In this document: positions 29,072 to 47,766 of the stretch, in pieces
Layout: the number at the start of each line of letters is the position of its first letter
Position numbering within the stretch: position 1 is the first letter of the stretch
Sequence record: OZ335956.1
Direction: 5' to 3' (one strand)
DNA: 49,912 bases
From: a phage
Notes under the pieces: generated by a model
What the model was told of the DNA's origin: nothing
Database searches by the model: none
The model's input: the letters and a program-made list of their open reading frames with translations, nothing else
Position numbers and translations under genes: made by a program

Positions 29072-29484
29072 TTACAGACAAAGGTGATTATTTAGAGTTT
29101 TACGAACGAGATCCCAGCGACACACGAAAGGAGGACGCGCACCAGGTAGATTGCGTGTCCTGGCTGAAATACAATTTCCCACATCTTCTATTTTGGCACA
29201 CTGTAAATGAAGGTGAAAAAACAATCACCTCGGCGCTCAGGGATGAGCAGGCTGGGTTACTTAAAGGAGTGTCAGACTTCGTTATCCTGATTGGTGTAAA
29301 CTCACGCTACCCGTTCGCAGCTATCGAACTCAAGCGGGTTAATAAGTCCGGCAAGGGAAAGGCGTCACCAGTCAGCGATAAGCAAAAGGAATTTCTCCGC
29401 AATGTTCGTCAACGAGGTGGATTTGCTGCGGTTGCATATGGATTGGAGCAATTCAAGATCGCAATTTACGAAATGATGAAATAG
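29068..29484 (+). CDS. VRR-NUC domain nuclease (putative)
   Basis: 138 aa; GVSDFVIL...AIELKR matches the D..ExK core of VRR-NUC; RBS GGAGGA. Confidence 0.65.
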   Translation: MITDKGDYLEFYERDPSDTRKEDAHQVDCVSWLKYNFPHLLFWHTVNEGEKTITSALRDEQAGLLKGVSDFVILIGVNSRYPFAAIELKRVNKSGKGKASPVSDKQKEFLRNVRQRGGFAAVAYGLEQFKIAIYEMMK

Positions 29485-29496
29485 CACTTTTTGTTA
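29482..29496. promoter_or_regulatory. palindromic motif site TAGCA-N5-TGTTA
   Basis: tagcactttttgtta; includes stop codon of preceding gene. Confidence 0.55.
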
Positions 29497-29551
29497 AAAC
29501 TGCCGGAATGGAATCTGGCATTATTACCTCACCGAAACGAGAGGACTAAAA

Positions 29552-30265
29552 ATGAAAGACTTTAATGACATTGAAACTATCGACTTTGCAGAAACTGGTT
29601 GCTCATTCACTCGCGAAGCAATAGCATCAGGCGGTTATTATCAGGCATTGAAAACGCCAACCTGTAAAGAAATCTCCGGTCGTCGATATAAGGGAACAAA
29701 TACGCCTGACGCAGTTCGTGATTTATGGTCTACCCCACGAGAGGTTATTGCATACCTTGAGGGTCGTTACGGAAAATACGATCTCGATGCTGCGGCAAGC
29801 GAAGAAAATAAAGTTTGCGAGAAGTTTTATTCTCAGGAAACAAACTGCTTAAAACGTTGGTGGGGTAAGAGCAAGCACGTTTGGTTAAATCCTCCTTACA
29901 GCCGCCCTGATATATTCGTCAAAAAGGCGATTGAGCAAATGGAGCACAACAATCAGATCGATATGTTGTTACCTGCCGATAATTCGACGGCGTGGTTTAC
30001 TGAGGCTCGACAGCACGCGGCTGAAATTATCTGGATTGAAGCGGATTTGACTGAAGATATCGACGGTAACGAGTATGCTCGATCCGGTCGCCTGGCCTTC
30101 ATATCCGGTGAAACTGGAAAGGCGGTTGACGGTAATAACAAAGGTTCGGTAATTTTCATTATGCGCGAACTGAAAGAAGGTGAGGTTCAACAGACCCACT
30201 ACATTCCAATCACAAGCATTTGCCCTTCGGTGAAGAACAAACGAGCAAAAGTGAGGAAAGTATGA
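29552..30265 (+). CDS. dam: DNA N6-adenine methyltransferase (Dam-like)
   Basis: catalytic NPPY motif in WLNPPYS; size and layout of phage Dam-type enzymes. Confidence 0.75.
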   Translation: MKDFNDIETIDFAETGCSFTREAIASGGYYQALKTPTCKEISGRRYKGTNTPDAVRDLWSTPREVIAYLEGRYGKYDLDAAASEENKVCEKFYSQETNCLKRWWGKSKHVWLNPPYSRPDIFVKKAIEQMEHNNQIDMLLPADNSTAWFTEARQHAAEIIWIEADLTEDIDGNEYARSGRLAFISGETGKAVDGNNKGSVIFIMRELKEGEVQQTHYIPITSICPSVKNKRAKVRKV

Positions 30266-30513
30266 TGAACGAAAAAATGATTCCGGTTAAGTTAACTGAG
30301 CAAGGCTTATGGCTTCTTTATCGCGCTACGTGCTGCGAAATCATGGAACAAAACGGATTGACGAAAGATGTTATTGGTTGCGACTTATGGGAGTTTACCA
30401 GTTCTCTTGATATGTCATTCGACGAGATAAAGAATGAACACATTGATTATTGGCCTTCGCTCATACAAAGAGACGTAGAAGAATTTAAATCTGATACGAT
30501 CGCACAGCACTAA
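30262..30513 (+). CDS. hypothetical protein
   Basis: ATG 30262 with RBS GAGGAAAG; ends at motif site. Confidence 0.5.
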   Translation: MMNEKMIPVKLTEQGLWLLYRATCCEIMEQNGLTKDVIGCDLWEFTSSLDMSFDEIKNEHIDYWPSLIQRDVEEFKSDTIAQH

Positions 30514-30519
30514 TTGCTA
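30505..30519. promoter_or_regulatory. palindromic motif site CAGCA-N5-TGCTA
   Basis: cagcactaattgcta followed by hairpin CCCGGC..GTCGGG and TATAGT. Confidence 0.5.
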
Positions 30520-30579
30520 AAACTACCCGGCGAAAGTCGGGTATAGTTATTTCATCGAAACGAAATGAGGAATCAGAAG

Positions 30580-30789
30580 ATGGCACGCATTAACGCAAAC
30601 TTTTTCAATATCGCCCAGCAGTCTGCAAAAATGGCCGTTCATATTACGAGTAAGCAAGGTGGCAACTTCGATTGGGATATTGCTATGAACTTCCTTAAAA
30701 TGTCTTATTACCGTTGCTCGGTTGAAGAAGTCGAATGCTTCATCTCTGACGTGGAGAAATTAACTAATGCTGATAAAAAAGCAAGGTAA
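30580..30789 (+). CDS. hypothetical protein
   Basis: ATG 30580 with RBS GAGGAA; 69 aa. Confidence 0.5.
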   Translation: MARINANFFNIAQQSAKMAVHITSKQGGNFDWDIAMNFLKMSYYRCSVEEVECFISDVEKLTNADKKAR

Positions 30790-31039
30790 GCGCGAAGTGT
30801 GGGAGCATGCAAAGGAATGCGGGATCTCAGGCGATATAGCACTAATCGCTAAATACTTCGATATAAAGGATGTTAGCATTATTTCAAACGGCAAGATTTC
30901 ATTTATGGAAGATATGCCGAGAAAAATGCATAGAGTACCAGCTACTCCATCGCTTGAGTTTTACCGTGAAGAAGGAAAGAGAATTGAACGAGAACGAAAA
31001 GCAGCAAAAAACATCAAGTCTTCCCGGCTTAAATATTAA
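30767..31039 (+). CDS. hypothetical protein (one of two overlapping frames)
   Basis: 90-aa ORF; overlaps 30870..31271 by 170 nt in another frame. Confidence 0.3.
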   Translation: MLIKKQGKREVWEHAKECGISGDIALIAKYFDIKDVSIISNGKISFMEDMPRKMHRVPATPSLEFYREEGKRIERERKAAKNIKSSRLKY

Positions 31040-31271
31040 TGCTGACGACTACCAGACAATATGGATCGGGAAAAAGCAGGTCAAGCAAATCCCCTTCTCT
31101 GATTGGTTGCCTCCTGACTTCGTTAACGTGCTTTGCACTATCGGGAACGATCAGGAATTGCACATTGGATATTATTCGCCAGGAAGAAACAGAATGATGC
31201 TTGAGGTTGACGGAAAGCTGGTTGAGTTCAAATCATCAGATCTAGGTTTCTGGTTAAAGGCTGTAGCGTGA
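30870..31271 (+). CDS. hypothetical protein (one of two overlapping frames)
   Basis: 133-aa ORF with AAGGA before ATG 30870. Confidence 0.35.
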   Translation: MLALFQTARFHLWKICREKCIEYQLLHRLSFTVKKERELNENEKQQKTSSLPGLNINADDYQTIWIGKKQVKQIPFSDWLPPDFVNVLCTIGNDQELHIGYYSPGRNRMMLEVDGKLVEFKSSDLGFWLKAVA

Positions 31272-31349: not shown

Positions 31350-32501
31350 ATGTCACAAGCTAAAATCACTACCGAGCAACTAATCGAAGAGCGCATGAAC
31401 GGCCTAACGCTTCGCGAGATCGCGGAAAAGTACGGTATGCATATCCGCACGGTTGAAGCGCGTCACGCCAAACTTGCAAAAGAAGGCCACTTTCACGGTA
31501 ACGAGCATGTTGCTAAAAACGTTCCAGAAGGCTTCATGGTTAAAGGTACATCAACGATGATTCGAGGTGATGGGACCGAAGTGGTCCGCTGGGTTAAGAC
31601 AGATCAGGATCGTGAGAAGATTGCCGCAATGATGGAAGCGGCTCGTATTGCATTCTGCGAAGACCTGCCGCGAGCAAAGCCAACCGAGCTACTCACCTCG
31701 CAAGGACTTACAACCGCGATCGGTAAGCTGGCGCTCTATCCGGTATTCGACCTTCACATCGGCGCGCTTGCTCACAAGCATGAGTGCGGAGAGAACTACT
31801 CTACCGACGTAGCTGAAAAAGTGCTGGGCGACTTCTTCAATTATGCGATCGATATCGCGCCAAATGCAGAGAAAGCCGTTCTGTTAATCGGCGGTGACTT
31901 CCTTCACTCTGACGGCCTTGACGCTGTAACCCCGGCAAGCGGTCACGTTCTGGATCAGGATTCACGATACGCTAAGTTGGTGCATGTAGCGATTCGATCG
32001 GTGCGACGAGCTATCGACAAAATGCTGACGAAACACAAAGAAGTCGAAGTCCAGGTCATTGAAGGAAACCACGACCAATCAGGAATGATTTGGCTGCGCG
32101 CTGCAATGGCTGCATACTATGAAGACGAGCCGCGAGTATTCGTTGACGTGAGTCCTATGATTCTGCATAAGACTCGCTGGGGCAATACCTTGCTGGGATA
32201 CACTCACGGTCACACGATGAAAAAGGCCGACATTCGACTTGCAGCAATGGCGGCAGACTTCCGCGCAGACTTCGGTGAAAGCAAATACGTGTACACGCAC
32301 AGCGGACACTGGCATCATCAGACAATCACTGAACACTCGTTAGGAATTGATGAGGTTCACGGGCAGTTAGGAGCGAAGGATGCATACGCCGCGCGAGGCG
32401 GGTGGCGCTCATATCGCCAAGCGGCGGTAATCGTTTACGACAAGCAATTTGGTGAGATAGGTCGATTCATCTATCGTCCAGAAATGACAGGATCGCACTA
32501 A
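31350..32501 (+). CDS. metallophosphoesterase with N-terminal HTH
   Basis: calcineurin-like motifs DLHIG, GGDFLH, GNHD, GHTH, GHWH; N-terminal LTLREIAEKYGMHIRTV resembles an HTH. Confidence 0.65.
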   Translation: MSQAKITTEQLIEERMNGLTLREIAEKYGMHIRTVEARHAKLAKEGHFHGNEHVAKNVPEGFMVKGTSTMIRGDGTEVVRWVKTDQDREKIAAMMEAARIAFCEDLPRAKPTELLTSQGLTTAIGKLALYPVFDLHIGALAHKHECGENYSTDVAEKVLGDFFNYAIDIAPNAEKAVLLIGGDFLHSDGLDAVTPASGHVLDQDSRYAKLVHVAIRSVRRAIDKMLTKHKEVEVQVIEGNHDQSGMIWLRAAMAAYYEDEPRVFVDVSPMILHKTRWGNTLLGYTHGHTMKKADIRLAAMAADFRADFGESKYVYTHSGHWHHQTITEHSLGIDEVHGQLGAKDAYAARGGWRSYRQAAVIVYDKQFGEIGRFIYRPEMTGSH

Positions 32502-32507
32502 TTGCTA
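32493..32507. promoter_or_regulatory. palindromic motif site (degenerate left half) TCGCA-N5-TGCTA
   Basis: tcgcactaattgcta followed by hairpin CCCGAA..TTCGGG and CATAGT. Confidence 0.45.
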
Positions 32508-32565
32508 AAAACGCCCGAAGGGATTCGGGCATAGTAACCACATCGAAAACAAATAGGTAATATCA

Positions 32566-32742
32566 TGAAACGTGTTAAATGCATCCGAAATGATTCCAAA
32601 ACTCTTCCATTCCGCGTAAATCAGATCTATAGTGTGGGTTATGATTTCGGTGGTGGATTATTTGAGATTTACGACGGTCGAGGCTCTTCAATCCAAGCAC
32701 CTCTGAACGGTCACTACCTGGAATTTATTGCAATAGATTAAC
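32566..32742 (+). CDS. small hypothetical protein (58 aa, below track cutoff)
   Basis: ATG 32566 downstream of a complete motif-hairpin module; open to TAA 32740-32742. Confidence 0.45.
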
Positions 32743-36066: not shown

Positions 36067-36123
36067 CACAATGAACTCCTTAGTTGACGGTGTAAATGAT
36101 ACACCGCCAATGGTACACGCGTT

Positions 36124-36138
36124 TTGCAAAAAGTGCTA
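36124..36138. promoter_or_regulatory. palindromic motif site
   Basis: ttgcaaaaagtgcta (- strand reads atagcactttttgcaa). Confidence 0.5.
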
Positions 36139-36142
36139 TTAG

Positions 36143-36559
36143 TTATAAGTATTTGGCCTCAAAGGTTGTGCCGTCCGCGATGCTGAATCCAACCTCTTCG
36201 CGAAACAGCGTCCAGCGATATCCATCCTCATCAAAGATGTAGCCAGCCACTCCACCAAGCGCACGACCGCTTTCCACCTGGTAGCGCTTTCCAACCTTGA
36301 ATGATTTTTTCATGGGGTTGCGATGTTCAAGCCCGGTGCACTTTAGCGTCTTGGTTTTAAGTTCAGTGAACTTCGCGAAGTAGATTTCATCAGATCCGTG
36401 AATCTGTAATTCATCGTGTTTCTCAAGTTTTAAATACTTTCCGCATTTTAATTTAATTTCGCGAGTTCCGTCGTAACGCTCACGACCTTTATACAGATTG
36501 TTTACTTCGAAGCCTGTGATTTTTTCTGCGGAAGTGCATTTCAGTTTGATGGATTTCAT
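36143..36559 (-). CDS. hypothetical protein
   Basis: start MKSIKLK with leader accaatcaggag; 138 aa. Confidence 0.5.
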   Translation of the reverse strand: MKSIKLKCTSAEKITGFEVNNLYKGRERYDGTREIKLKCGKYLKLEKHDELQIHGSDEIYFAKFTELKTKTLKCTGLEHRNPMKKSFKVGKRYQVESGRALGGVAGYIFDEDGYRWTLFREEVGFSIADGTTFEAKYL

Positions 36560-36623
36560 TGCGCTCACTCCTGATTGGTTTTCTTGAATAAGGCCACTTT
36601 ATCAAATGACCTTACGGCAATAT

Positions 36624-36638
36624 TAACAAATCGTGCTA
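36624..36638. promoter_or_regulatory. palindromic motif site
   Basis: taacaaatcgtgcta; - strand module homologous to the one at 44093. Confidence 0.55.
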
Positions 36639-36639
36639 T

Positions 36640-36853: not shown

Positions 36854-37078
36854 TTAACTCCATGAATTAATGTAAATTGAGTTAGCCTCAAGCGTTGCGC
36901 GGACGTCGGCATCTGTTGCATTTACTAAGCGCGAGCCTGGCGTGCTGCCAATAACGTTATTACCGTTGCGAGTTTTAGTTACCGTCATTGAAATAAAACC
37001 GGAAGACTTATCCATTTTAATAACTACACGACCTTTAGCGTTCAGGTGCTTGATGATATTCTCAACTTTAATGCTCAT
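36854..37078 (-). CDS. hypothetical protein
   Basis: start MSIKVEN with RBS AAGGAA; 74 aa. Confidence 0.5.
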   Translation of the reverse strand: MSIKVENIIKHLNAKGRVVIKMDKSSGFISMTVTKTRNGNNVIGSTPGSRLVNATDADVRATLEANSIYINSWS

Positions 37079-37140
37079 TTCTAATTCCTTTGTTTCGTTT
37101 GGTGTGGGAGTAATATATATCACTCCCGATTGTATGTCTT

Positions 37141-38270: not shown

Positions 38271-38271
38271 A

Positions 38272-39617: not shown

Positions 39618-40226
39618 TTCCAATAATTGCTTATTATTCCATCAATGCTGGAATAGGTGGAATAATTTTGATTCCGATTGATTGCAAATGATGAAACATG
39701 ATTATTGCATGGTGTGCAACAGTTGGTTGATTTATTGCTGAGATTACAATGATTGTGAGAGGGAGGATCTAGTGTTACCCGGTTCGCCTGGTAGTCATCT
39801 CCATTTTTAGCAAAAAGTGCTACCGATTACACTTTAACTTGTCACTGCTGTAATATTTGTCTAGAATCACACTTGTGACAAAATTACGCACTGTGACACC
39901 TCACAATATACATATAGATATATGTATCTATATAATATATATAGTATTTTTTTTATTTATATATATAGATAATTATATTGTAATAATTGTGTATAGTTGT
40001 CTTACATTGTCTAGCGTACTGTTGGCATATTTCTATCTGCATGTTTATATATACAGTACTTTTTTGAGAGCTATATATTTCTATATGGACTCTAGACAGC
40101 TAGACAAATGTTACACGGCTTAAAATCGGCTTGCAGGCATTGACAACTCTACGTCGCGCTGTCACAATGGCAATTGTTGACACGTTATGACGCCATTTAC
40201 ACGCAAATAGACAAAGAGGATATATT
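39618..40226. promoter_or_regulatory. AT-rich divergent control region (candidate origin or early promoter cluster)
   Basis: non-coding; five GGAAT/ATTCC repeats at 39617-39675; sigma70-like TTGTCA-17-TAGAAT at 39839-39867; palindrome ATAGATA-tatg-TATCTAT; imperfect palindrome TGTCACAAT..ATTGTTGACA near 40160-40185. Confidence 0.5.
39808..39822. promoter_or_regulatory. palindromic motif site, perfect TAGCA-N5-TGCTA
   Basis: tagcaaaaagtgcta. Confidence 0.55.
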
Positions 40227-40742
40227 ATGAGCAATACCAATCAGGAATTAAAAATCACCGATATGATTCGCCTAACCTGCGATGCAATGTACCGCGACAA
40301 AGGCATGAAAGAGTTCTCTTTCGTGGCTGATGATATGGCGAGAGAGGCGGTAAAATTTTACTTCCGAGATCAGGATATTTCAGATGATGAGGTGGAGCGC
40401 GGAGCTACCGGGTGGGTGAACCAGAACCAGGGCGAGGTGGAGAAGCGATTCAAGTCGGCTTTCATCACCCCGATCATTACCCGACACTTCTGCAAGTATG
40501 GCAAGGTGGCAAAGGTTAAGGTAGGCAGGAATGACGCAGCAATCACTATGATAACCGTTACCGTTACCGACGAAGAGGCTCCGGTGAAGAAGCGCCGCAG
40601 CCGGAAGAAAGTTAGCCTGGCTGATTGCCTGGACTCGTTTGTGGTGGATGTGCGTAAGTTGGCTGATAGCGAGCTAATGACACGTGATGTGAATGAGATC
40701 GTGCGCCAGATGAAAGAGCATATTGAAAAGTGTGGACTGTAA
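40227..40742 (+). CDS. hypothetical early protein
   Basis: 171-aa ORF, first gene of rightward early block; RBS AAGAGGA. Confidence 0.55.
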   Translation: MSNTNQELKITDMIRLTCDAMYRDKGMKEFSFVADDMAREAVKFYFRDQDISDDEVERGATGWVNQNQGEVEKRFKSAFITPIITRHFCKYGKVAKVKVGRNDAAITMITVTVTDEEAPVKKRRSRKKVSLADCLDSFVVDVRKLADSELMTRDVNEIVRQMKEHIEKCGL

Positions 40743-40754
40743 GGAGAGATGACT

Positions 40755-41015
40755 ATGAGCAAGATTAAGCATGACGCCCTGAAAGGTATTTTGATGCGAC
40801 TGGAGCCGGGCGAGGCATTCCAGCTTAACCCCGAAACGTTCGGATTCGTAGGCTTCTATCGGCTTGGCCTACAGATGAGTTCTCCAGCCGATGAGCTTGT
40901 CCGGTATGTGCGCAAGCAATTCGGTGTCGAGATGATTAGTCTGGGCAAAGTGCAAGGCATCCAGCTATTTATCTTCAAGCCAAATAAGATTCGTTGCTTC
41001 ACCCTGATGAAATAG
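40755..41015 (+). CDS. hypothetical early protein
   Basis: ATG 40755 with RBS AAGGAGAG; ends in motif site. Confidence 0.5.
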   Translation: MSKIKHDALKGILMRLEPGEAFQLNPETFGFVGFYRLGLQMSSPADELVRYVRKQFGVEMISLGKVQGIQLFIFKPNKIRCFTLMK

Positions 41016-41027
41016 CACTTTTTGTTA
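41013..41027. promoter_or_regulatory. palindromic motif site heading an early module
   Basis: tagcactttttgtta then hairpin GGGATAAC..GTTATCCC enclosing TGGTATAGT. Confidence 0.55.
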
Positions 41028-41086
41028 AAACCGGATCGGGATAACCTGGTATAGTTATCCCATCAACAACGAATGAGGAAGCGAAT

Positions 41087-41281
41087 ATGGAAACGCAAAT
41101 TGACGTAGTGGTTGTTCAGCGTGACTCTACTCATGAAAAGGGTCTGTTCAAGAAGGGAGTCGAAATCACGATAGATCTTGAGGATATGGTTGCATATCAC
41201 TCGGGCCTCACCTGGAACGTGGTGCGCGTGGGTAGCGACTACAAACTCAAAGGATTTAACACTTACTTCGCGGAGGCTTAA
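41087..41281 (+). CDS. hypothetical early protein
   Basis: 64 aa, RBS GAGGAAG. Confidence 0.5.
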   Translation: METQIDVVVVQRDSTHEKGLFKKGVEITIDLEDMVAYHSGLTWNVVRVGSDYKLKGFNTYFAEA

Positions 41282-41283: not shown

Positions 41284-41754
41284 ATGACAACAATCACTGT
41301 ATTCTTGGCGAAAGACGAACTGGACGACGAAATGTCATTCTTCGCGTTTGAGCACAGAACCGGATCGCACTGGCACACTTACAGCCACTACACGGTTATC
41401 TCAATCGAAGCGTACGACGGGGATTTGCTCACTGACAAGCTGAGTGATTTTATTGAAACTGTTAAGACTAGCGAAGGTTGCGAGTGGAAAGAAGATCATG
41501 AAGTTATGCGAATGTACGAGATGATTAATCCGGTTCGCCTTGAGTCGTTCGAGCTTGATCCTGATGTGACTATTAAGGTGAGAAAGCCTGGTGAGTTGTT
41601 GCCAGGGATGCGTGTGCTGACTGGTTGCACAGGCCGTAAGGTGTGGCGCACGGTATCGAAGGTTCGCCAGCGTTCAGAAACATGCTATAGCTTATTCTTT
41701 GAAGATGGTTGGAATGAGATGGCTGGTAGCGAAGTGAAGTACCTCACCAAATAG
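41284..41754 (+). CDS. hypothetical early protein
   Basis: 156 aa, RBS GGAGG. Confidence 0.55.
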   Translation: MTTITVFLAKDELDDEMSFFAFEHRTGSHWHTYSHYTVISIEAYDGDLLTDKLSDFIETVKTSEGCEWKEDHEVMRMYEMINPVRLESFELDPDVTIKVRKPGELLPGMRVLTGCTGRKVWRTVSKVRQRSETCYSLFFEDGWNEMAGSEVKYLTK

Positions 41755-41766
41755 CACGAATTGTTA
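41752..41766. promoter_or_regulatory. palindromic motif site heading an early module
   Basis: tagcacgaattgtta then hairpin GGGGTA..TACCCC enclosing TGATATAGT. Confidence 0.55.
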
Positions 41767-41832
41767 AAACCGGATCGGGGTATCTTGATATAGTTACCCC
41801 ATCGAAACGAGATACCAATCAGAGGAATCACC

Positions 41833-42096
41833 ATGTCAATCGTCAAGAATCGCAAAGCAATCGAAGCTACCCGTCACAACAAGCAACACGCGATTTTCAT
41901 CTCTCGCTACTGCTCAAATATCAATGATGGCGCACAGTATCGACGCTATGCAGTTATTGAGCTTTCCCCGTACATTTACAAGGAGTATCTCGAGGATAAC
42001 GGCAAATGGATTGAGACTGAAGGCATGACGAGCTTCTTGATCTGGAATGGTGAATTTCAGGGTTATGACGATATCAGCACTTTAATTGAGGAATAA
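41833..42096 (+). CDS. hypothetical early protein
   Basis: 87 aa, leader ccaatcagaggaatcacc. Confidence 0.55.
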   Translation: MSIVKNRKAIEATRHNKQHAIFISRYCSNINDGAQYRRYAVIELSPYIYKEYLEDNGKWIETEGMTSFLIWNGEFQGYDDISTLIEE

Positions 42097-42102: not shown

Positions 42103-42330
42103 ATGCCGCGTTACAGCAATCTAACTCAACTAACCCGCGTCAACGGGCACATGATCCCGGCTAAATCTACTCACTGCGCGAAAGGCGCAAAGCACGGATT
42201 ATATTTCAAGTGGCGCGGTCAATGGAACTTCACGGCGGTGAGCAATTTTTACATGCGCGTTCCTGGTGATGACCCGCAATCGGTAGTAGAAAACTCAATC
42301 GGCGACAACAAGATCGAGGTACTAAAATGA
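42103..42330 (+). CDS. hypothetical early protein
   Basis: 75 aa, RBS GAGGAA. Confidence 0.5.
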   Translation: MPRYSNLTQLTRVNGHMIPAKSTHCAKGAKHGLYFKWRGQWNFTAVSNFYMRVPGDDPQSVVENSIGDNKIEVLK

Positions 42331-42616: not shown

Positions 42617-42808
42617 ATGGCTGATTTTATGCACCAAATGATTGCAGTATTCAAAGGCAGCGATGACCAGGAAGTGAAAGAGTGCTTTACCGTTGACAAG
42701 CCTTATAGTGCGTCGCTTACCAGCTTCGGGAACATCTCATTGCTTGATGATAATGGAGATCCCTGGATATTCGACGAAGATACTGATTGCTTCGAAATTA
42801 AAGAATAG
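42617..42808 (+). CDS. hypothetical early protein
   Basis: 63 aa, acidic; ends in motif site. Confidence 0.5.
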   Translation: MADFMHQMIAVFKGSDDQEVKECFTVDKPYSASLTSFGNISLLDDNGDPWIFDEDTDCFEIKE

Positions 42809-42820
42809 CACTTTTTGTTA
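42806..42820. promoter_or_regulatory. palindromic motif site heading an early module
   Basis: tagcactttttgtta then hairpin GGGGTT..AACCCC enclosing GCGCTATAGT. Confidence 0.55.
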
Positions 42821-42879
42821 AAACTCAATATAGGGGTTGCGCTATAGTAACCCCATCGACAACGAGCGAGGACGATAGC

Positions 42880-43368
42880 ATGAAAATCAAATTACTTTGC
42901 ACTGGCGGTTATAAAGGCTTTACCCGAGATCTGGAAGCAGACCCTATCGTGGTTGATGCGGTGAAGTGTGATGATAGCCTCGGCGGCTACCGCGTGAAGT
43001 TTGACGACCTGGTTAAAGCTGGTGTGTACGATCTGGATTATGGACTTTCGGTTAGCCCGGTAGTCGGCCCGGCAGATTTCAACGAGAAGGACGGAACGAT
43101 GTTCTTTTTTGAATGGGAAGTGCAATCAAACATCAAGCCGCGCAAGGTTCGTCTTCTCAGCAATGGCGGCTACCCTATGCGCCCAGGTTATGAGAATCGC
43201 ACGTTCCCGGTTATCGTTGACTTTGAAGAAATCACCGCACACTTAGCTTATATCAACGGTGAACAGCTTAATGCTGTTGGATTCGTGGGAGGTATGAATC
43301 AAGAGGCGCTATGCTTCTTCCATTGTAAAGCCGAGCCGTTCGATATTGAGTGCGAATTGGTTTACTAA
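42880..43368 (+). CDS. hypothetical early protein
   Basis: 162 aa, RBS GAGGA. Confidence 0.55.
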   Translation: MKIKLLCTGGYKGFTRDLEADPIVVDAVKCDDSLGGYRVKFDDLVKAGVYDLDYGLSVSPVVGPADFNEKDGTMFFFEWEVQSNIKPRKVRLLSNGGYPMRPGYENRTFPVIVDFEEITAHLAYINGEQLNAVGFVGGMNQEALCFFHCKAEPFDIECELVY

Positions 43369-43381
43369 GCACGAATTGTTA
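43367..43381. promoter_or_regulatory. palindromic motif site heading an early module
   Basis: aagcacgaattgtta followed by extended -10 TGGTATAAT. Confidence 0.55.
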
Positions 43382-43439
43382 AAAGTGGATTTGGCCTGAC
43401 TGGTATAATCCCCACATCAACCACTAAGAGGAAATCATT

Positions 43440-43946
43440 ATGTTGAAATTAGAAGATGTTAAATTCCCGATCAAATTTATCAGCATTGGCTGCGGTGAAA
43501 TTACGTTCACCAATGAAGATAAGGGCACCTGGGCCACTGAGGAAGTGTCTCAGCTTAAGTTGGAGTGGTTTATTGCACGGCATAACGAAGTAAACAAGGA
43601 AAATTCACCAAATAAGGACTACCACTACATTATGAGTGACGCTCAGGATTCGTACAGCGTGTATGATAATTGGAAGTTGGAAGGTTCCATATTCAACGGT
43701 GTAAAACCAGAAATCAAGCCGACGCTACAATGCACTCAGATCGAGAACATGCCATTGAGCGCCACACTAAAAGGTGTCCAGCTTGATAGCAAATCCTGGA
43801 TTGAAATTACCGCCACACCGAAAACCATTGAGGTGCACAACGATATCATCACGCTGTTGCTGCATCACGGTGGATTCAAGCATAAGACGGTATCGGGTGA
43901 AATCAGCATCAAGCGCGGAACGCTTGTCCGCTACGAGGTGAAATAA
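43440..43946 (+). CDS. hypothetical early protein
   Basis: 168 aa, RBS AAGAGGAAA. Confidence 0.55.
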   Translation: MLKLEDVKFPIKFISIGCGEITFTNEDKGTWATEEVSQLKLEWFIARHNEVNKENSPNKDYHYIMSDAQDSYSVYDNWKLEGSIFNGVKPEIKPTLQCTQIENMPLSATLKGVQLDSKSWIEITATPKTIEVHNDIITLLLHHGGFKHKTVSGEISIKRGTLVRYEVK

Positions 43947-44095
43947 TGGTTACCTGGGTTTTGATTATCCTGATGAGCAATGGACCGGATCACGTATATA
44001 TGAACAGCCAGCATTCATGCAATGAGGCTCGGGCAGTCATTGCAGATAACAAGCCGTTCGGATACGAAGTAAAAACTATGTGCGTTAAACGATAG
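43946..44095 (+). CDS. small hypothetical protein (49 aa, below track cutoff)
   Basis: ATG overlapping upstream stop (TAATG); hydrophobic N-terminus; its stop TAG is the first triplet of motif site 44093. Confidence 0.4.
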   Translation: MVTWVLIILMSNGPDHVYMNSQHSCNEARAVIADNKPFGYEVKTMCVKR

Positions 44096-44107
44096 CACGA
44101 ATTGCTA
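44093..44107. promoter_or_regulatory. palindromic motif site, perfect, heading an early module
   Basis: tagcacgaattgcta then hairpin GGCCA..TGGCC enclosing TGATATAGT. Confidence 0.55.
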
Positions 44108-44175
44108 AACCTTCCGCAAGGCCATTTGATATAGTGGCCTTATTGAAGCAGGGCAACCAATCAGAGGAATCAGCT

Positions 44176-44382
44176 ATGGCTACACGACTCACTCAGTGGC
44201 AGATTTACGACAAGGCATCACGCCTACGTGAATCACTTCGCGGACTGACACCGAACGACCGCATGGAGATTATCGGGCACGCATTGCACGAACTCACGCC
44301 GCCGGACGTAACCTATCATTCATGCGGCAATAAATTCTGGAACGTAACATTCGAGGTGAAGAAACATGAGCAAGCGTCATAA
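44176..44382 (+). CDS. hypothetical early protein
   Basis: 68 aa, leader caaccaatcagaggaatcagct. Confidence 0.5.
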   Translation: MATRLTQWQIYDKASRLRESLRGLTPNDRMEIIGHALHELTPPDVTYHSCGNKFWNVTFEVKKHEQAS

Positions 44383-44653
44383 GTTAAAAATCGCTCCGGT
44401 ACATTTCATCGGGGTAATGAACGGAACCAAAACGGCTGAGTTCCGAGTCAATGACCGCAACTTCCAGCCCGGCGATATCCTGGAGCTATGCGAGTTCGAG
44501 CGCGATGAGTTTACCGGGTGGGAGGTTCACGCCAGGGTATCCGATGTTACCGATGTGACGCCATACATCAATCGCGGGTATGACGAGCAAGAATGCGACT
44601 TCACGCAATACGTGATGTTATCAATCAAGCCTTACAGGAAGATTAGGCCATGA
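44366..44653 (+). CDS. ASCH/PUA-like small protein (DUF3850-like, putative)
   Basis: 95 aa; N-terminal HKLKIAPVHFIGVMNGTKTAEFRVNDRNFQPGDILEL resembles the DUF3850/ASCH pattern. Confidence 0.45.
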   Translation: MSKRHKLKIAPVHFIGVMNGTKTAEFRVNDRNFQPGDILELCEFERDEFTGWEVHARVSDVTDVTPYINRGYDEQECDFTQYVMLSIKPYRKIRP

Positions 44654-45306
44654 AATTTGAATGCGTATCTAGTAGCGGATCTGGTTTCAAGTATGGAAAA
44701 ACTTACGAAGGTGTTCGCGTAAATGATGACAGTTTTATCATTACAGCTGAGAACGGTTGCAATGTGAACGTTGTTCGACGTAACGAATACCAGGAAATTT
44801 TCCTGCCGTATGGCGGTAGCTCAAAATATATCTTCCATCGAATCGTAGATGGTGTTAAATTTAAAGACGTAATTGAAGCAATCAACCAACTACATAATAA
44901 AGAGGTAAAAACTATGAAATTCGAATGTATCAGCGATAACACCAAAAAATTTACCGTTGGCAAAATCTACGACGCGCCGACTGAGAACGCAAAGCACACT
45001 GTAGCGCTAACCGATGACACGGGCCGCCACCGCATTGCAACCGTGACGCATAATGGCGAAGGTCTTCGCTGGAATAGCGGCGGCACTAAGTTTGCAACGT
45101 TCGGCAAGAAGAAGCGGAAATTTAATACCAGTCGAATCAAGGGCGATTTCCGCATCGAACATGGTAAGATTCACAGCGTTAAGCCAAGCGAAGTTGATGG
45201 TAAAGTCAAGCCTAAGCTGACCAACAAGGACATTGATAATCTGGCGAATCTGGCTATGGCTACCGTGCTTCTTATTTCTCTTATCGTGCTGTTTTTCGTA
45301 GTTTAA
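44650..45306 (+). CDS. tandem-repeat membrane-anchored protein
   Basis: 218 aa; two homologous domains each starting MKFEC(V/I)S, second preceded by internal RBS AAAGAGG; C-terminal hydrophobic anchor. Confidence 0.55.
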   Translation: MKFECVSSSGSGFKYGKTYEGVRVNDDSFIITAENGCNVNVVRRNEYQEIFLPYGGSSKYIFHRIVDGVKFKDVIEAINQLHNKEVKTMKFECISDNTKKFTVGKIYDAPTENAKHTVALTDDTGRHRIATVTHNGEGLRWNSGGTKFATFGKKKRKFNTSRIKGDFRIEHGKIHSVKPSEVDGKVKPKLTNKDIDNLANLAMATVLLISLIVLFFVV

Positions 45307-45312: not shown

Positions 45313-45350
45313 ATGGGAATCGTTCCTGAGCGGTTCCCTATTTTTATGAG
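45313..45350 (+). terminator. terminator-like hairpin
   Basis: GGGAATCG..CGGTTCCC followed by TATTTTTAT. Confidence 0.4.
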
Positions 45351-45356
45351 GTGAAT

Positions 45357-45479
45357 ATGAATAGCTTTATGCCTGATTTTAAGAACTGGAAAAACGAACC
45401 TCCATCATTTCATGAGTTGTTATTCTGCCTCCTGTTTCTGACTCTATCTCTTAAGGGTGTTTTATGGCTACTATCATGA
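45357..45479 (+). CDS. small hydrophobic peptide (40 aa, below track cutoff)
   Basis: ATG 45357 with RBS GAGGTG; predicted transmembrane segment. Confidence 0.3.
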   Translation: MNSFMPDFKNWKNEPPSFHELLFCLLFLTLSLKGVLWLLS

Positions 45480-45682
45480 CAGCAGAAGATGCAGCACGCG
45501 ACGCAGTGGAAGGAATGCGCCCAAATAGCTCCAGAATCGCCCACTACTACAAATCTGAGGTGTCGGCAGTGCAATTGACCCACGAAATTTTAAGGCTCCC
45601 ACAGGTCGATTCAGCGCGCGTAGTGACGTGCTTAAAAAATTATTTTTGCATTGCTATTAAAACGAATAGCACGAATTGCTAA
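45464..45682 (+). CDS. hypothetical early protein
   Basis: 72-aa ORF ending in motif site 45667. Confidence 0.4.
   Translation: MATIMTAEDAARDAVEGMRPNSSRIAHYYKSEVSAVQLTHEILRLPQVDSARVVTCLKNYFCIAIKTNSTNC
45667..45681. promoter_or_regulatory. palindromic motif site, perfect, heading an early module
   Basis: tagcacgaattgcta then hairpin GGGGAAT..ATTCCCC enclosing GCGCTATGAT. Confidence 0.55.
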
Positions 45683-45739
45683 AACCTATCAAGGGGAATG
45701 CGCTATGATTCCCCTACACCAACAAGCGAGGAAACACAC

Positions 45740-46186
45740 ATGAAACACTTAATCTGTATTGAAGCACCTAACGATGAATACACTCTTCACGGCATTGGTA
45801 TGTTCAAAGGTCACTATATGACCGCAAGCATTTACGACGCGCATCGAGGTGACGGCGATCTAATGATTAAGTCAAAAGAGGTTAATCCGTACATCATGCA
45901 GAATCTTGGTAATAACGAATATATGGCCTACGGATGCAATGCGGTTTACAAGCACATCAAGATCCGCAAGCGTGTAGTGCGTGCATTCAAGAAAATTGCA
46001 ATGAAGCACTGGAAGATGAGCAAGAAGGACGCCGGACGCTGGGCGCGCAATGTTGCTGACTCATACTTCTACCGTAACGGTGAGTCCTGCTACTTCCTTA
46101 TCGATGAACTTATGGAAAACTGCGGAGGCGACTTCAGCCAGATTAGCTTTGACGATTGGGCTAACTATGAGATTAGTTGCTGGTAA
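45740..46186 (+). CDS. hypothetical early protein
   Basis: 148 aa, RBS GAGGAAA. Confidence 0.55.
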   Translation: MKHLICIEAPNDEYTLHGIGMFKGHYMTASIYDAHRGDGDLMIKSKEVNPYIMQNLGNNEYMAYGCNAVYKHIKIRKRVVRAFKKIAMKHWKMSKKDAGRWARNVADSYFYRNGESCYFLIDELMENCGGDFSQISFDDWANYEISCW

Positions 46187-46201
46187 TGGCACGAATTGCT
46201 A
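46187..46201. promoter_or_regulatory. palindromic motif site heading an early module
   Basis: tggcacgaattgcta then hairpin AAGGGTA..TGCCCTT enclosing TGATAGAAT. Confidence 0.5.
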
Positions 46202-46269
46202 AAACTTGCTCAAGGGTATTTGATAGAATGCCCTTCGTTGAGTTAAGCAACCAATCAGAGGAATAAATC

Positions 46270-46803
46270 ATGGATAAAATTACAATTTGGGGTCAGACTA
46301 TCAACCTGTTTCTCGGCACGCGTCGAGTTGCAATCTTTGACTTCGACGGAACACTGAGCGACGGATCTGGTAGACTTCACCTGCTACCGACAAAGGATTT
46401 GCACTTGACTGAAAGCTGGTCCGAGTTTAACCGCGCGGCAATATTTGACAACCCTATCCAAAGCACGATCGATGTGATGAACTCTATGTTTGCAGCTGGT
46501 TATCATGTGATCATTTTAACCGGGCGAAGCGATGAGGTGCGTTACGCATCTGAGTTATGGCTTAAGCATCACGGCGCTCGATATGATTACTTAGTCATGC
46601 GACCGCACACTGACAACCGCAAAGACACGGTAATGAAAGAAGAGGCGGTGCGCGCGATCGGTATTGATAATATTCTGGCGGCCTGGGATGACTCACCTCA
46701 AATTATTCCATTACTCCGTTCGCTTGGAATAACCACTTACGCTGTAGTTGATTATGGCGATAAAGTTCACGATCATTTAAAATCTCACGGGGTAGATGAA
46801 TGA
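46270..46803 (+). CDS. HAD-family phosphatase (polynucleotide 3'-phosphatase-like)
   Basis: N-terminal DxDGT motif in FDFDGTLSDG; leader caaccaatcagaggaataaatc. Confidence 0.6.
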   Translation: MDKITIWGQTINLFLGTRRVAIFDFDGTLSDGSGRLHLLPTKDLHLTESWSEFNRAAIFDNPIQSTIDVMNSMFAAGYHVIILTGRSDEVRYASELWLKHHGARYDYLVMRPHTDNRKDTVMKEEAVRAIGIDNILAAWDDSPQIIPLLRSLGITTYAVVDYGDKVHDHLKSHGVDE

Positions 46804-46910
46804 ACCTATACGAATTTATTGCAGCACATCCGGTATTGACGGTTATCATCCTGTTAATCATCAATCACACTATCATCAATGTGGCAAAATTATTTTTAGG
46901 GAGATACTAG
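46800..46910 (+). CDS. small hydrophobic peptide (36 aa, below track cutoff)
   Basis: ATG 46800 overlapping phosphatase stop; predicted transmembrane segment. Confidence 0.25.
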   Translation: MNLYEFIAAHPVLTVIILLIINHTIINVAKLFLGRY

Positions 46911-46911
46911 C

Positions 46912-47484
46912 ATGAAAACAGCTATCATTTTAAACGGCGCGCCGGGCGCTGGTAAGGACACTATCGGCGCAATCCTGGCTGACATTTACGATCACGTAGC
47001 TTTGCGCAGCTTCAAAGAGCCGATGTTTGAGATTGCTCGGGCAATACTTGGTGAAACTAACTACGAGTATTTCATGTTCTTGTATGAGGACCGTCGATAC
47101 AAAGAAGAGCCAGCATCTATCCTGAACGGTAAAAGCCCACGCCAGTTTATGATCTGGATTAGCGAAGAGGTAATCAAGCCACAGTTCGGCAATCGCTTCT
47201 TCGGTATGCGAGCGGAAAGTAAGGTGAAAGAGTCGTACTCCCTTTCGGTATTTACTGACGGTGGATTCAAAGATGAGATCTTGCAAATGATTGAAGGCGA
47301 TATCCAGGTAAAGCTATGTCGAATCCATCGCAACGGTTGCAACTTCGATAATGACAGTCGCGATTATATCTACCTGGATGATATGATCGGGGTCAACGGT
47401 TATCAGGAATGTGATTTCTTCTCTGTTGAGGGTCATCCTGAAATTACCGCTCAGCACATAGCCGCCACATTCATCAATAAATAG
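46912..47484 (+). CDS. P-loop nucleotide or polynucleotide kinase (putative)
   Basis: Walker A GAPGAGKDT near the N-terminus; RBS GGGAG. Confidence 0.6.
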   Translation: MKTAIILNGAPGAGKDTIGAILADIYDHVALRSFKEPMFEIARAILGETNYEYFMFLYEDRRYKEEPASILNGKSPRQFMIWISEEVIKPQFGNRFFGMRAESKVKESYSLSVFTDGGFKDEILQMIEGDIQVKLCRIHRNGCNFDNDSRDYIYLDDMIGVNGYQECDFFSVEGHPEITAQHIAATFINK

Positions 47485-47496
47485 CACGAATTGCTA
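47482..47496. promoter_or_regulatory. palindromic motif site, perfect, heading an early module
   Basis: tagcacgaattgcta followed by TGATATAGT. Confidence 0.55.
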
Positions 47497-47556
47497 AAGC
47501 GTCGGTGGGGTGATTTGATATAGTTACCTCATCGACAACGAAGAGAGAAAATCGAA

Positions 47557-47766
47557 ATGATGGTATCAACTGATAAGCTTTTCACTTGCACTAAAACTTC
47601 TGAAGTATTCGAACTTATCCATACTGATGATGGCGATTTCATGTATGACGGTTGCGACGCTTTCATTGAAGTGAAAGAAAGTGACTATGACGAAGGCGTT
47701 TATTATAATCCGGCAGTGAGCACTCAGTTTTTTACACCGATCGAAGAAGAAGGAGAAGGGGCATGA
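47557..47766 (+). CDS. hypothetical early protein
   Basis: 69 aa, acidic. Confidence 0.5.
   Translation: MMVSTDKLFTCTKTSEVFELIHTDDGDFMYDGCDAFIEVKESDYDEGVYYNPAVSTQFFTPIEEEGEGA

Follow-up and report, generated by a model that had tools for sequence, protein, structure and literature searches.

Background

Repeated elements between genes have been described in several phages. In 2024 a 21-nt intergenic direct repeat, aaATAGCACnnnTTGnTAAAA, was reported from phage TLS; it runs with transcription ~76 nt before start codons, is present also in T1, Rtp and Rogue1, and its function was left open between a stoperator, an enhancer and an UP element (PMC11447400). In T4-like phages the PeSL and PmSL cassettes place a repeated stem-loop, an early promoter and an SD between small early ORFs, and in PmSL an activator box (for MotA) takes the place of the -35 (PMC2839356, PMC4122927). 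Promoter-coupled terminators let an end signal and the next promoter share DNA between tandem, functionally related genes, and in them the T-tract abuts the -10 while the stem serves as the -35 as well (Fletcher et al., bioRxiv 10.64898/2026.08.19.745784). For the host regulators MarA, SoxS and Rob the binding site, the marbox, has been defined as 5'-gcannwwntgnnaaa-3' (PMC12052159); forward-oriented marboxes cluster near -41, in class II promoters that lack a -35 (PMC10268841), and for the structurally solved class II promoter micF the cryo-EM of Rob-RNAP puts the marbox G at -47 and A at -45 (PMC9178005).

We report that a T1-like coliphage (Drexlerviridae) carries a repeated module whose motif is the same element as the TLS repeat, and we describe a -10, a hairpin and a marbox match, none of which is given in the TLS paper (PMC11447400). 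The module resembles class II MarA/SoxS/Rob (RamA) promoters such as micF in its forward 20-bp marbox, whose recognition elements are GCAC and YAAA, its box centre near -41, its sigma70 -10 and its lack of a -35 hexamer. Unlike these host promoters it occurs in a virulent phage at ~20 copies per 50 kb, nearly always has a TG extension, encodes an RNA hairpin in its spacer and discriminator, and holds the stop codon of the upstream gene inside the box. It shares with PeSL and PmSL the combination of elements between small early ORFs, and with PmSL an apparent activator box in place of the -35; in contrast to PeSL, whose stem-loop immediately precedes a -35/-10 promoter, the stem-loop here lies between the putative activator box and the start site, the box differs from that of PmSL in being a host-type marbox, and the link to indel breakpoints is only about 2-fold. 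Compared with promoter-coupled terminators, end signal and promoter likewise share DNA, but the modules have no T-tract and their stem uses spacer and discriminator.

Results

The window (the whole 49,912-nt stretch of OZ335956.1) is 100% identical to Escherichia phage UP30. It contains 19 complete modules of ~75 nt and several partial copies, at 39806(-), 49318(+), 30839(+), 6106(-) and 9873(-); GCACnnnTTGYTAAA is found at 37 sites with at most two mismatches, against 9.5 expected. The first-pass annotation had noted at least 12 rightward and about 6 leftward units between 29478 and 47560, and the repeated early unit is confirmed with 11 and 6 complete copies (17 in total), two more lying beyond this range. 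Modules were found in T1, in TLS, in Rtp-sized contigs and across ~50-kb T1-like contigs generally. The suggestion that each early gene is a separate cassette also gains support, the unit being repeated, oriented and placed ahead of individual early genes. The complete rightward modules are as follows ("G" is the first base of GCAC; folding energies, kcal/mol, in brackets):

22416-22492 (+), beyond 29478-47560: degenerate marbox ACGGCACAAATAGCTAAACA, G 22419; TGTTATAAT displaced by 1 nt; hairpin 22444-22467; start codon 22490
26972-27055 (+), beyond that range, first of a rightward operon: marbox 26972-26991, G 26975; -10 27010-27015 (TATTAT); predicted +1 27022; hairpin 26990-27027 with 9-bp outer stem; start codon 27053
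29481-29554 (+): marbox 29481-29500, G 29484; extended -10 29516-29524 (TGGCATTAT); predicted +1 29531; hairpin inside the spacer, ~29501-29520; start codon 29552
30504-30582 (+): marbox 30504-30523, G 30507; -10 30542-30547 (TATAGT); predicted +1 30554; spacer hairpin 30524-30543 (-13.5); start codon 30580
32492-32567 (+): marbox 32492-32511, G 32495; -10 32530-32535 (CATAGT); predicted +1 32542; spacer hairpin 32513-32530 (-12.8); start codon 32565
41012-41089 (+): marbox 41012-41031 (ATAGCACTTTTTGTTAAAAC), G 41015; extended -10 41047-41055 (TGGTATAGT); predicted +1 41062; hairpin 41034-41064; start codon 41087
41751-41835 (+): marbox 41751-41770, G 41754; extended -10 41786-41794 (TGATATAGT); predicted +1 41801; hairpin 41773-41803 (-13.6); start codon 41833
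42805-42882 (+): marbox 42805-42824, G 42808; -10 42843-42848 (TATAGT); predicted +1 42855; hairpin from 42833, 8-bp stem GGGGTTGC/GTAACCCC (whole fold -15.5); start codon 42880
43366-43442 (+): marbox 43366-43385, G 43369; extended -10 43401-43409 (TGGTATAAT); predicted +1 43416; weak hairpin 43385-43413 (-8.6); start codon 43440
44092-44178 (+): marbox 44092-44111, G 44095; extended -10 44127-44135 (TGATATAGT); predicted +1 44142; hairpin 44111-44148 (-16.0); start codon 44176
45666-45742 (+): marbox 45666-45685, G 45669; -10 45704-45709 (TATGAT); predicted +1 45716; hairpin 45692-45715 (-12.9); start codon 45740
46186-46272 (+), before the polynucleotide kinase gene: marbox 46186-46205 (ATGGCAC...), G 46189; extended -10 46221-46229 (TGATAGAAT); predicted +1 46236; hairpin 46205-46247 with a U·G pair (-16.0); start codon 46270
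47481-47559 (+): marbox 47481-47500, G 47484; extended -10 47516-47524 (TGATATAGT); predicted +1 47531; hairpin 47501-47536 with G·U pairs (-22.4); start codon 47557

The complete leftward modules are:

36067-36139 (-), before the DNA helicase gene: marbox 36139-36120, G 36136; -10 36101-36096 (TATCAT); predicted +1 36089; hairpin 36110-36084 (-16.1); start codon 36069
36557-36639 (-): marbox 36639-36620, G 36636; extended -10 36604-36596 (TGATAAAGT); predicted +1 36589; hairpin 36620-36584 (-14.2); start codon 36559
37076-37156 (-): marbox 37156-37137, G 37153; -10 region 37121-37113; predicted +1 37106; hairpin 37127-37106 (-12.9); start codon 37078
38195-38272 (-): marbox 38272-38253, G 38269; extended -10 38237-38229 (TGGTATAGT); predicted +1 38222; hairpin 38253-38214 (-15.9); start codon 38197
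38605-38689 (-): marbox 38689-38670, G 38686; extended -10 38654-38646 (TGGCATAAT); predicted +1 38639; hairpin 38670-38629 (-11.0); start codon 38607
39537-39618 (-), first leftward: degenerate marbox ATAGCATTTTTTGCTAACGA, G 39615; -10 GTATGA/TATGAT; weak hairpin only (-6.8); start codon 39539

Promoter elements and the marbox match

The layout was derived from 632 unique copies from 74 T1-like sources, which align without gaps when the G of GCAC is set as position 0. An upstream stop codon is followed by the 20-nt motif (positions -4 to 16), 18 nt, an extended -10 of the TGnTATAGT type (G33 conserved at 89%; hexamer at 35-40, with A36 at 88% and T40 at 86%), a C-rich discriminator with CCCC at 43-46, the predicted start A47 (82%), a 25-nt leader and the RBS. 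The fusion of stop codon and motif noticed earlier holds for 343 of 555 unique copies, in which the TAG within the motif is the upstream stop, and so does the conserved leader, AUCGAAACGA followed by an ACCAATCAGAGGA-type RBS, with a predicted 5'UTR of median 25 nt. Conservation around the -10 peaks at the G of TG, A-11 and T-7, with a conserved CA 7 nt downstream; this signature, like that of a sigma70 extended -10, supports the earlier assignment of TATAGT as the -10. AAAACn occupies the -35 position, no -35 hexamer is present in the modules, and the module is very probably a sigma70 extended -10 promoter.

The motif had also been called palindromic, which does not hold, for the G at position 0 never varies, whereas position 10, with which it would pair in a palindrome, is C in 59% and T in 41% of copies. 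Judged by this composition the motif is functionally asymmetric, and it fits the asymmetric marbox. Exact gcannwwntgnnaaa matches number 21 in the window against 0.9 expected, and none of 100 shuffles reaches 21. The classical marbox pattern is AYnGCACnnWnnRYYAAAY, which with at most one mismatch occurs at 21 sites against 1.05 expected, and the variable positions of the motif are only those that are degenerate in the consensus (n/n/W at 4-6 and Y at 10). Moreover, 35 nt separate the G of GCAC from the first -10 base in the phage modules and in E. coli micF alike (G at 137 and TAGAAT at 172-177 of locus L074). The phage box is in forward orientation and centred at -40.5, and its G and A positions equal those in Rob-RNAP (-47/-45) if +1 is position 47. 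It is nearly invariant, conserved far more strictly than host marboxes and nearer to the consensus than micF and marRAB, the two host sites checked.

No MarA/SoxS/Rob homologue was found among six-frame ORFs of the window and 72 related loci (phmmer/hmmsearch E>0.6), no AraC-like relative by hhalign of 56 ORF alignments (probability at most 1.7%), and no HTH by Pfam in the 20 rightward early ORFs scanned. Since the phage has no AraC/XylS-type protein, the activator would be a host protein. MarA and SoxS (in Klebsiella and Salmonella, RamA) are produced in response to stress. Rob, in turn, is constitutive and abundant (PMC9178005). The marbox match of the TLS-type repeat is new here, and from it we infer that an activator binds; the box is probably used by proteins of the MarA/SoxS/Rob family.

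Hairpin placement and strand

Compensatory change between the hairpin arms, proposed in the first-pass annotation, is borne out by arm swapping: over 144 diverged representatives, native modules average an MFE of -10.75 kcal/mol and arm-swapped chimeras one of -7.03 kcal/mol (Mann-Whitney p=4e-19). Covariation counted at fixed register is only weakly above controls, because the hairpin register is not single. Pairing is confined to the interval from the marbox to position 47, where pairing probability falls. Among 81 representatives with hairpins of -8 kcal/mol or below, the -10 lies wholly or partly in the loop in 36 (~45%), as had been proposed for all copies; 29 hairpins (~36%) lie wholly upstream of or abut the -10, and 16 are otherwise placed.

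G·T pairs make up 63% of the tolerated internal mismatches in native hairpins vs 30% in chimeras (Fisher p=9e-6) and A·C is not enriched, the G·T vs A·C contrast alone not being significant against the chimera background in the de-replicated set (p=0.09). Folding is 1.1 kcal/mol more favourable for the sense than for the antisense strand, and the sense strand has the advantage in both placement classes. Hairpins are stronger where a co-directional ORF ends in the marbox (-13.7 vs -10.1 kcal/mol, p=1e-6); modules that lack an upstream ORF nonetheless have better folds than chimeras, and module 26975, first in its operon, has a strong hairpin though no co-directional gene reads in. Our data suggest that the hairpin quite probably acts as sense RNA, most likely folding in read-through transcripts.

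Discussion

A box bound by a phage-encoded protein, an immediate-early activator or a "stoperator" repressor, with coincidental or mimicked likeness to a marbox, would suit a motif stricter than host marboxes even at A-4, A-1, T7, T11 and C16, which are free in the consensus; such conservation could reflect a different, phage-specific ligand. The first rightward module is separated from the canonical promoters (39.8-40.2 kb) by two genes (40227-41015), most early proteins are without known function, and stoperators or enhancer sites were what the TLS authors proposed (PMC11447400). We nevertheless regard this as unlikely, since a perfect 18-bit match in the right orientation with exact micF spacing is improbable by chance, a monomer that has two helix-turn-helix motifs would call for just such an asymmetric box, and the searches above detected no AraC-like protein and no HTH. 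Stoperators, moreover, work inside transcribed regions together with a repressor, and we know of no repressor reported for these virulent phages. The TG extension can replace a -35, and the TG-extended -10 might work without an activator. The A/T-rich box centre (TTTTT, GAATT or TAATT) and the terminal AAAA would then provide an UP-element-like contact for the alpha C-terminal domain or an enhancer, and UP elements were suggested by the TLS authors (PMC11447400). This is highly improbable, as the invariant GCAC and TTGYT are foreign to UP elements, and an information content of ~25 bits, together with the strict register relative to the -10, indicates a protein that recognises a specific sequence.

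Regarding the hairpin, equivalent structures are annotated as rho-independent terminators in the SA12KD GenBank record, promoter-terminator overlap is widespread in bacteria (bioRxiv 10.64898/2026.08.19.745784), and spacer-class hairpins stop just before the -10. A role as terminators resembling promoter-coupled ones is quite improbable all the same: only 5% have at least 5 T in the 8 nt past the stem (mean 1.5 T), so that a U-tract terminator was rejected, the real terminators of the window (45315-45338 and 49273-49290) differ in look, and an antisense form (hairpin, then GUUUUA) is contradicted by the sense-strand bias. The inverted repeat might instead act on DNA as a cruciform or hairpin that hides or pre-melts the -10, as in phage N4 hairpin promoters, given that the arms flank the -10 in the commonest placement and that module 26975 has a perfect 9-bp repeat. 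The related proposal that the hairpin occludes the -10 until melted is not supported, about a third of hairpins excluding the -10. A cruciform requires both strands, and the tolerance of G·T and not of A·C together with the sense-strand bias argue against it; ~8-bp stems whose loops measure 5 to 12 nt are unlikely to extrude. We therefore consider action on DNA very unlikely, also because E. coli micF has no comparable repeat and, according to its authors, TLS has no RNA polymerase gene (PMC11447400). Nor did we find support for the hairpin as the 5' end of each mRNA, the predicted start at position 47 being at or beyond its 3' edge, so that the module's own transcript would be without it. A start further upstream could be served by TGYTAAAAC, which is like TGnTATAAT at four of six hexamer positions and would start ~7 nt downstream, on the 5' arm. 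T-7 is the most critical -10 base, and the last hexamer position is T in just 1% of copies; the downstream TATAGT has the exact sigma70 signature and a CA start at the right distance, which makes an upstream start extremely unlikely.

On balance we lean towards an intergenic cassette with two overlapping functions, a class II marbox promoter and a read-through RNA stem-loop. The forward, asymmetric 20-bp activator box at -50 to -31 would stand in for the -35 hexamer, with Rob (constitutive), MarA, SoxS, or RamA in Klebsiella/Salmonella as candidate host activators; transcription from the TGnTATAGT extended -10, 18 bp past the box, would begin at the conserved A and yield a 25-nt unstructured leader with its RBS. 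The 18-bp spacer and the discriminator, the promoter's only sequence-free stretches, may have been recruited to encode a stem-loop that would be present solely in transcripts reading through from the upstream gene. Hairpins without a U-tract have general precedents, from outside this phage, among processed and Rho-terminated 3' ends. By analogy the hairpin may both mark and protect the upstream gene's message at its 3' end, either as an obstacle to 3' exonucleases that lacks a U-tract or as a processing point; we put forward such 3'-end protection or punctuation only tentatively. For each small gene, termination (as stable RNA) and renewed initiation would thus both fall within ~75 nt. If true, the marbox-promoter reading would answer the published question of what TLS-type repeats do.

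Finally, marboxes also occur in other settings in the window:

6069-6123 (-): marbox and TGTTATGAC at the class II offset, antisense to late genes; downstream ORF absent
9839-9890 (-): marbox and TGATACGAT at the class II offset, antisense to late genes; without hairpin or ORF
49315-49334 (+): marbox with neither -10 nor hairpin, immediately ahead of the RBS of the gp3-like packaging gene
39804-39867 (+): class I-like arrangement, in which a canonical rightward promoter, TTGTCA-17-TAGAAT (39839-39867), has a reverse-oriented marbox (39804-39823) 15 nt ahead of its -35

In the marRAB counterpart of this last arrangement the gap from marbox to -35 is 16 nt.

Genome setting and comparison set

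In a megablast search the segment 39000-47600 matched 294 phage records, with Escherichia phage UP30 being 100% identical and many Tunavirus/Drexlerviridae phages (Escherichia, Shigella, Klebsiella, Citrobacter and Salmonella hosts) being 88-90% identical; the recorded hosts of these relatives are all Enterobacteriaceae. The window amounts to an essentially entire T1-like genome, with the structural genes at approximately 1-19.5 kb and the recombination and replication genes, together with many small early genes, at 21-49.9 kb. As comparison set we used 72 related loci around the polynucleotide kinase gene (55-98% protein identity), which provided 738 copies of the motif, 632 of them unique. 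A collection scan placed the multi-copy motif almost entirely on T1-like contigs of ≈50 kb.

Layout of the repeated module

The motif GCACnnnTTGYTAAA is present 37 times in the window at ≤2 mismatches (9.5 expected), and the 632 unique copies can be aligned without gaps. The copies printed with their flanks and this alignment confirm the ~80-bp unit that had been recognised in the first-pass annotation, and the view of each small early gene as a separately punctuated cassette was right, the cassette being repeated between small ORFs. The earlier counts, at least 12 rightward and about 6 leftward, are close: inside 29478-47560 there are 11 complete rightward and 6 leftward modules, and more complete or partial modules are located outside this interval.

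With the G of GCAC as position 0, the profile reads AATA (-4 to -1), GCAC (0-3), (T/G)(A/T)(A/T) (4-6), TTG (7-9), C or T (10) and TAAAAC (11-16), followed by a variable stretch (17-32), G at 33 (89%), TATART at 35-40 (A36 88%, T40 86%), CCCC at 43-46, A at 47 (82%) and an A-rich leader. In 343 of 555 unique copies the upstream gene uses the TAG within the motif as its stop codon. Conservation is maximal at bases read by sigma70, i.e. the G of the TG extension, A-11 and T-7, and there is a conserved C-A 7 nt downstream of the -10 hexamer. Together these elements make up the signature of a putative extended -10 promoter with a predicted +1 at position 47. The median length of the predicted 5'UTR is 25 nt (IQR 24-27); it spans positions 47-72, is very constant and starts with AUCGAAACGA. 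The RBS context ACCAATCAG(A)GGA is recurrent, also before late genes without a module and at 9893-9912 (+).

The true -35 position (12-17) is occupied by AAAACn, with at most 3/6 matches to TTGACA, and TTGYTA was rejected as a -35 since its constant distance to the -10 element, 22 nt, is too long. The early region shows no enrichment of canonical two-hexamer promoters, and the best of them are grouped in the non-coding stretch 39.8-40.2 kb. In the sigma54 consensus, TGGCAC-N5-TTGCW, GG and GC are 10 nt apart. A sigma54 promoter was rejected since GCAC and TTGC are 2 nt closer in the module than in this consensus, and also because the box has AG, not GG, in all copies but one. Sigma32 and MotA-box readings have the wrong spacing or position. 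A GATC (Dam) sequence at position 28 in 12/107 copies is not compelling as a fixed-position site.

The same element, aaATAGCACnnnTTGnTAAAA, is described in the 2024 re-annotation of phage TLS as 18 intergenic copies, oriented with transcription and situated ~76 nt upstream of start codons, and is present also in T1, Rtp and Rogue1; only three sigma70 promoters were found there, and the function of the repeat is listed as an open question, with stoperators, enhancer sites and UP elements as guesses (PMC11447400). Equivalents in an Rtp-like phage were named 'phage-specific promoters' in one genome report, and in the GenBank record of SA12KD the hairpins are annotated as rho-independent terminators. 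The literature searched contained neither transcription-start data for T1-like phages nor papers linking marboxes with these phages.

The motif as a marbox in class II position

The Grainger laboratory defines the marbox, the site bound by MarA, SoxS and Rob, as 5'-gcannwwntgnnaaa-3' (PMC12052159). Exact matches to this definition number 21 in the window (0.9 expected). The classical 20-mer marbox, reportedly due to Martin et al. in 1999, is AYnGCACnnWnnRYYAAAYn; this consensus, run as a 19-mer at ≤1 mismatch, gave 21 sites where 1.05 were expected. Over the 632 copies the motif varies only at degenerate consensus positions and, as far as its sequence goes, it is a perfect instance of the enterobacterial MarA/SoxS/Rob site. 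It had been called palindromic in the first-pass annotation. It is instead asymmetric: G is invariant at position 0, and the base at position 10 that would match it in a palindrome can be C or T; a symmetric-dimer site TAGCA-N5-TGCTA was therefore rejected. Marbox positions -2 to 12 contain a 5-bp inverted repeat, UAGCA/UGYUA, that is predicted to be folded in read-through RNA in 50-77% of the copies; the C/T change at position 10 retains G-C or G·U pairing in this repeat.

At class II promoters a forward marbox overlaps the -35 position (PMC12052159, PMC10268841). Salmonella ChIP-seq and cappable-seq data place forward sites near -41, at promoters without a -35 element, and reverse-oriented sites near -62 (PMC10268841). 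In all complete modules GCA..AAA reads toward the gene, and the centre of the box is at -40.5 relative to the predicted +1. The distance from GCAC to the -10 element is identical to that in micF of E. coli K-12, where the G of GCAC lies 35 nt before the TAGAAT hexamer. With +1 at position 47, the G and the A of the phage GCAC fall at -47 and -45, the positions given for them in the Rob-RNA polymerase cryo-EM paper (PMC9178005). Judged by sequence and geometry, the modules qualify as candidate class II mar/sox/rob promoters. This reading of the motif as a host-type marbox in class II position is the most important point; it had been overlooked in the first-pass annotation and was not found reported in the literature searched, and it offers a concrete and cheaply testable answer on the function of the repeat and would supply the missing promoters.

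A single marbox has a predicted class I arrangement:

39804-39823, reverse orientation: class I-like marbox, 15 nt upstream of the -35 element of TTGTCA-17-TAGAAT, centre at about -60.5

It is the one without a -10 element of its own, and its 15-nt gap to the -35 element compares with 16 nt between marbox and -35 in marRAB.

A hairpin under selection, probably in the sense strand

The modules carry an inverted repeat between the end of the marbox and the predicted start, with arms that vary between copies. This hairpin is real and under selection. Among 144 representatives differing at >8 of 34 positions, the mean fold of positions 15-55 was -10.75 kcal/mol compared to -7.03 kcal/mol (p=4e-19) for chimeras, in which the 5' and 3' halves came from different modules, with the position-specific composition kept; 65% of the natives and 36% of the chimeras have a helix of ≥6 Watson-Crick pairs. 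The advantage of native folds over these arm-swap controls bears out the earlier suggestion that compensatory arms reflect selection on the stem. In the main register, i+j=69, the arms lie at 23-28 and 41-46; a second class of hairpins is confined to the spacer, with its end at position 35. Of the check that had been proposed, the multiple alignment proved gapless, and covariation counted in a fixed register (112/144 representatives, copies without a -10 element being left out) was weakly above shuffled and slid controls because the register floats; the arm-swap comparison was used instead. Pairing probability is limited to the stretch from the marbox end to position 47. The orthologous set upstream of the kinase gene (17 loci, 14 unique sequences) has a few compensatory and wobble changes but is too small for statistics. 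No Rfam match at the gathering threshold was obtained over the whole window, and a tRNA scan of the window found nothing.

Among the tolerated internal helix mismatches G·T accounts for 63% (31/49) vs 30% in chimeras (Fisher p=9e-6), and A·C is not enriched (10% vs 12%). Moreover, the fold of the sense strand is better by 1.1 kcal/mol than that of the antisense strand (p=0.002), a bias seen in both placement classes and absent from the chimeras. The G·T tolerance and the strand bias therefore point to folding of the sense strand by itself, most simply as RNA, and argue against a cruciform, which makes it unlikely that the hairpin occludes the -10 element until melted, one of the two roles first considered. 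An N4-type hairpin promoter, which has a stem of 5-7 bp and a 3-nt loop, or a cruciform was likewise rejected on the median loop of 5 nt, the floating placement and the strand-specific wobble; such a reading needs a phage RNA polymerase, and no RNA polymerase gene is reported for TLS (PMC11447400). The sense-strand bias in both classes also led us to reject an antisense terminator (a reverse-strand hairpin followed by GUUUUA).

The other role first considered, a 5' stem-loop stabilising each mRNA, is unlikely since the module's own transcript, from its predicted start, begins at or after the 3' arm; the hairpin would therefore be present only in transcripts arriving from upstream. Where a co-directional ORF ends in the marbox the hairpins average -13.7 kcal/mol, and -10.1 kcal/mol otherwise (p=1e-6), with the first-in-operon module at 26975 being a counter-example to this link. 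Intrinsic termination was rejected, as the 8 nt after the stem have a mean of 1.5 T and ≥5 T in 5% of cases; none of the modules is among the terminator-like sites of the window, where real terminators look different. Because the hairpins are not intrinsic terminators, we propose that, once the upstream message has been processed or has undergone factor-dependent termination, they may mark its 3' end and protect it, this being the weakest step of the argument. The same 75-nt cassette must also hold the 20-bp activator box, the -10 element, the leader and the RBS, and the hairpin would most parsimoniously occupy the spacer and discriminator because these are its only unconstrained stretches. 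An embedded sense-strand hairpin would be a compact design in which spacer and discriminator DNA of the promoter double as an RNA signal and, if true, a new way to pack a message end inside the non-transcribed part of the next promoter.

The modules are similar to PeSL/PmSL of T4-like phages in being repeated stem-loop and early-promoter cassettes between small early ORFs (PMC2839356, PMC4122927), but in PeSL, a cassette type associated with indels, the stem-loop is just upstream of a -35/-10 promoter whereas here it is embedded and there is no -35 element. Promoter-coupled terminators (bioRxiv 10.64898/2026.08.19.745784) are also similar, but the phage modules have no T-tract. Homology breakpoints fall within modules in 16.8% of cases vs 8.2% expected (p=0.001); this enrichment is 2-fold only, and a recombination-cassette role was rejected.

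Candidate activators

A MarA-like phage protein was searched for in the six-frame ORFs of the window and the 72 loci, with nothing below E=0.6 (phmmer and a three-sequence profile), and by profile-profile comparison (hhalign) of 56 ORF families, with at most 1.7% probability. Rob is expressed constitutively at a high level (PMC9178005), and the MarA, SoxS and Rob genes are present in E. coli K-12. Given the lack of a phage MarA-like protein in these searches, the abundance of Rob and hosts that are all Enterobacteriaceae, we infer that the predicted module promoters are driven by a host activator, namely Rob, MarA or SoxS, or RamA where the host is Klebsiella or Salmonella. The main rival is a phage-encoded binder of another fold, which may read the same box; Pfam gave no HTH and no DNA-binding domain in the 20 rightward early ORFs scanned, and PHROGs gave no DNA-binding domain in 20 ORFs.

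With a host regulator, each genome would have about 20 class II sites and at least one class I site wired to it. The full proposal, that essentially all early and DNA-metabolism promoters of T1-like phages are wired to host MarA/SoxS/Rob/RamA, with titration and hairpin packing included, we put forward tentatively, as having slightly less than an even chance of being correct. If true, constitutive Rob would sustain infection, with a boost under stress (bile, oxidative or antibiotic) and in multidrug-resistant strains whose mar/ram is derepressed, and the dense array of consensus marboxes could titrate the regulators away from host defence and efflux genes. To our knowledge this would be the first virulent phage family with wholesale dependence on a host antibiotic/stress-response activator. 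Drexlerviridae, the Klebsiella weberviruses among them, serve in phage therapy and are notorious as contaminants of fermenters. Many multidrug-resistant isolates over-produce MarA, RamA and SoxS, and salicylate, bile and redox drugs induce these regulators; the wiring would, if true, have practical consequences in these settings.

Further sites in the window

Marboxes in other layouts:

6069-6123 (-): marbox and TGn-10 at the class II offset, antisense into late (structural) genes
9839-9890 (-): marbox and TGn-10 at the class II offset, antisense into late (structural) genes
26506-26520 (-): degenerate marbox at the end of ORF 26507-26959 (-)
49315-49334 (+): marbox without -10 or hairpin, directly upstream of the RBS of a gp3-like packaging gene (PF16677)

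No ORF follows the units at 6069-6123 and 9839-9890, which show little or no hairpin and may be antisense promoters. After the marbox at 26506-26520 come a canonical terminator hairpin with its T-run and, next, the RBS of 25512-26447 (-), a layout unlike that of the promoter modules. The one at 49315-49334 is positioned just after a bidirectional terminator (49273-49290), and this arrangement recurs in relatives.

Genes and a terminator of the small early region:

41087-41281 (+): small early gene, Pfam PF25180 'phage antiviral trigger protein Gp54' (E=9e-36)
42103-42330: gene near the former, DUF7274
44366-44653: DUF3850/ASCH protein, RNA-binding according to the RefSeq annotation
45315-45338 (+): canonical intrinsic terminator after gene 44650-45306, one of only two in the rightward early cluster

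The gene next after this terminator, 45464-45682, has no module in front. The stretch at 39900-40080 is extremely AT-rich and has (TATA)n-like repeats; the words TGTCAC/GTGACA and TAGACA recur on its flanks, and around it lie the early region's three best canonical sigma70 promoters (39839-39867, 39907-39936 and 40140-40168). This stretch could be an immediate-early control region or an origin.
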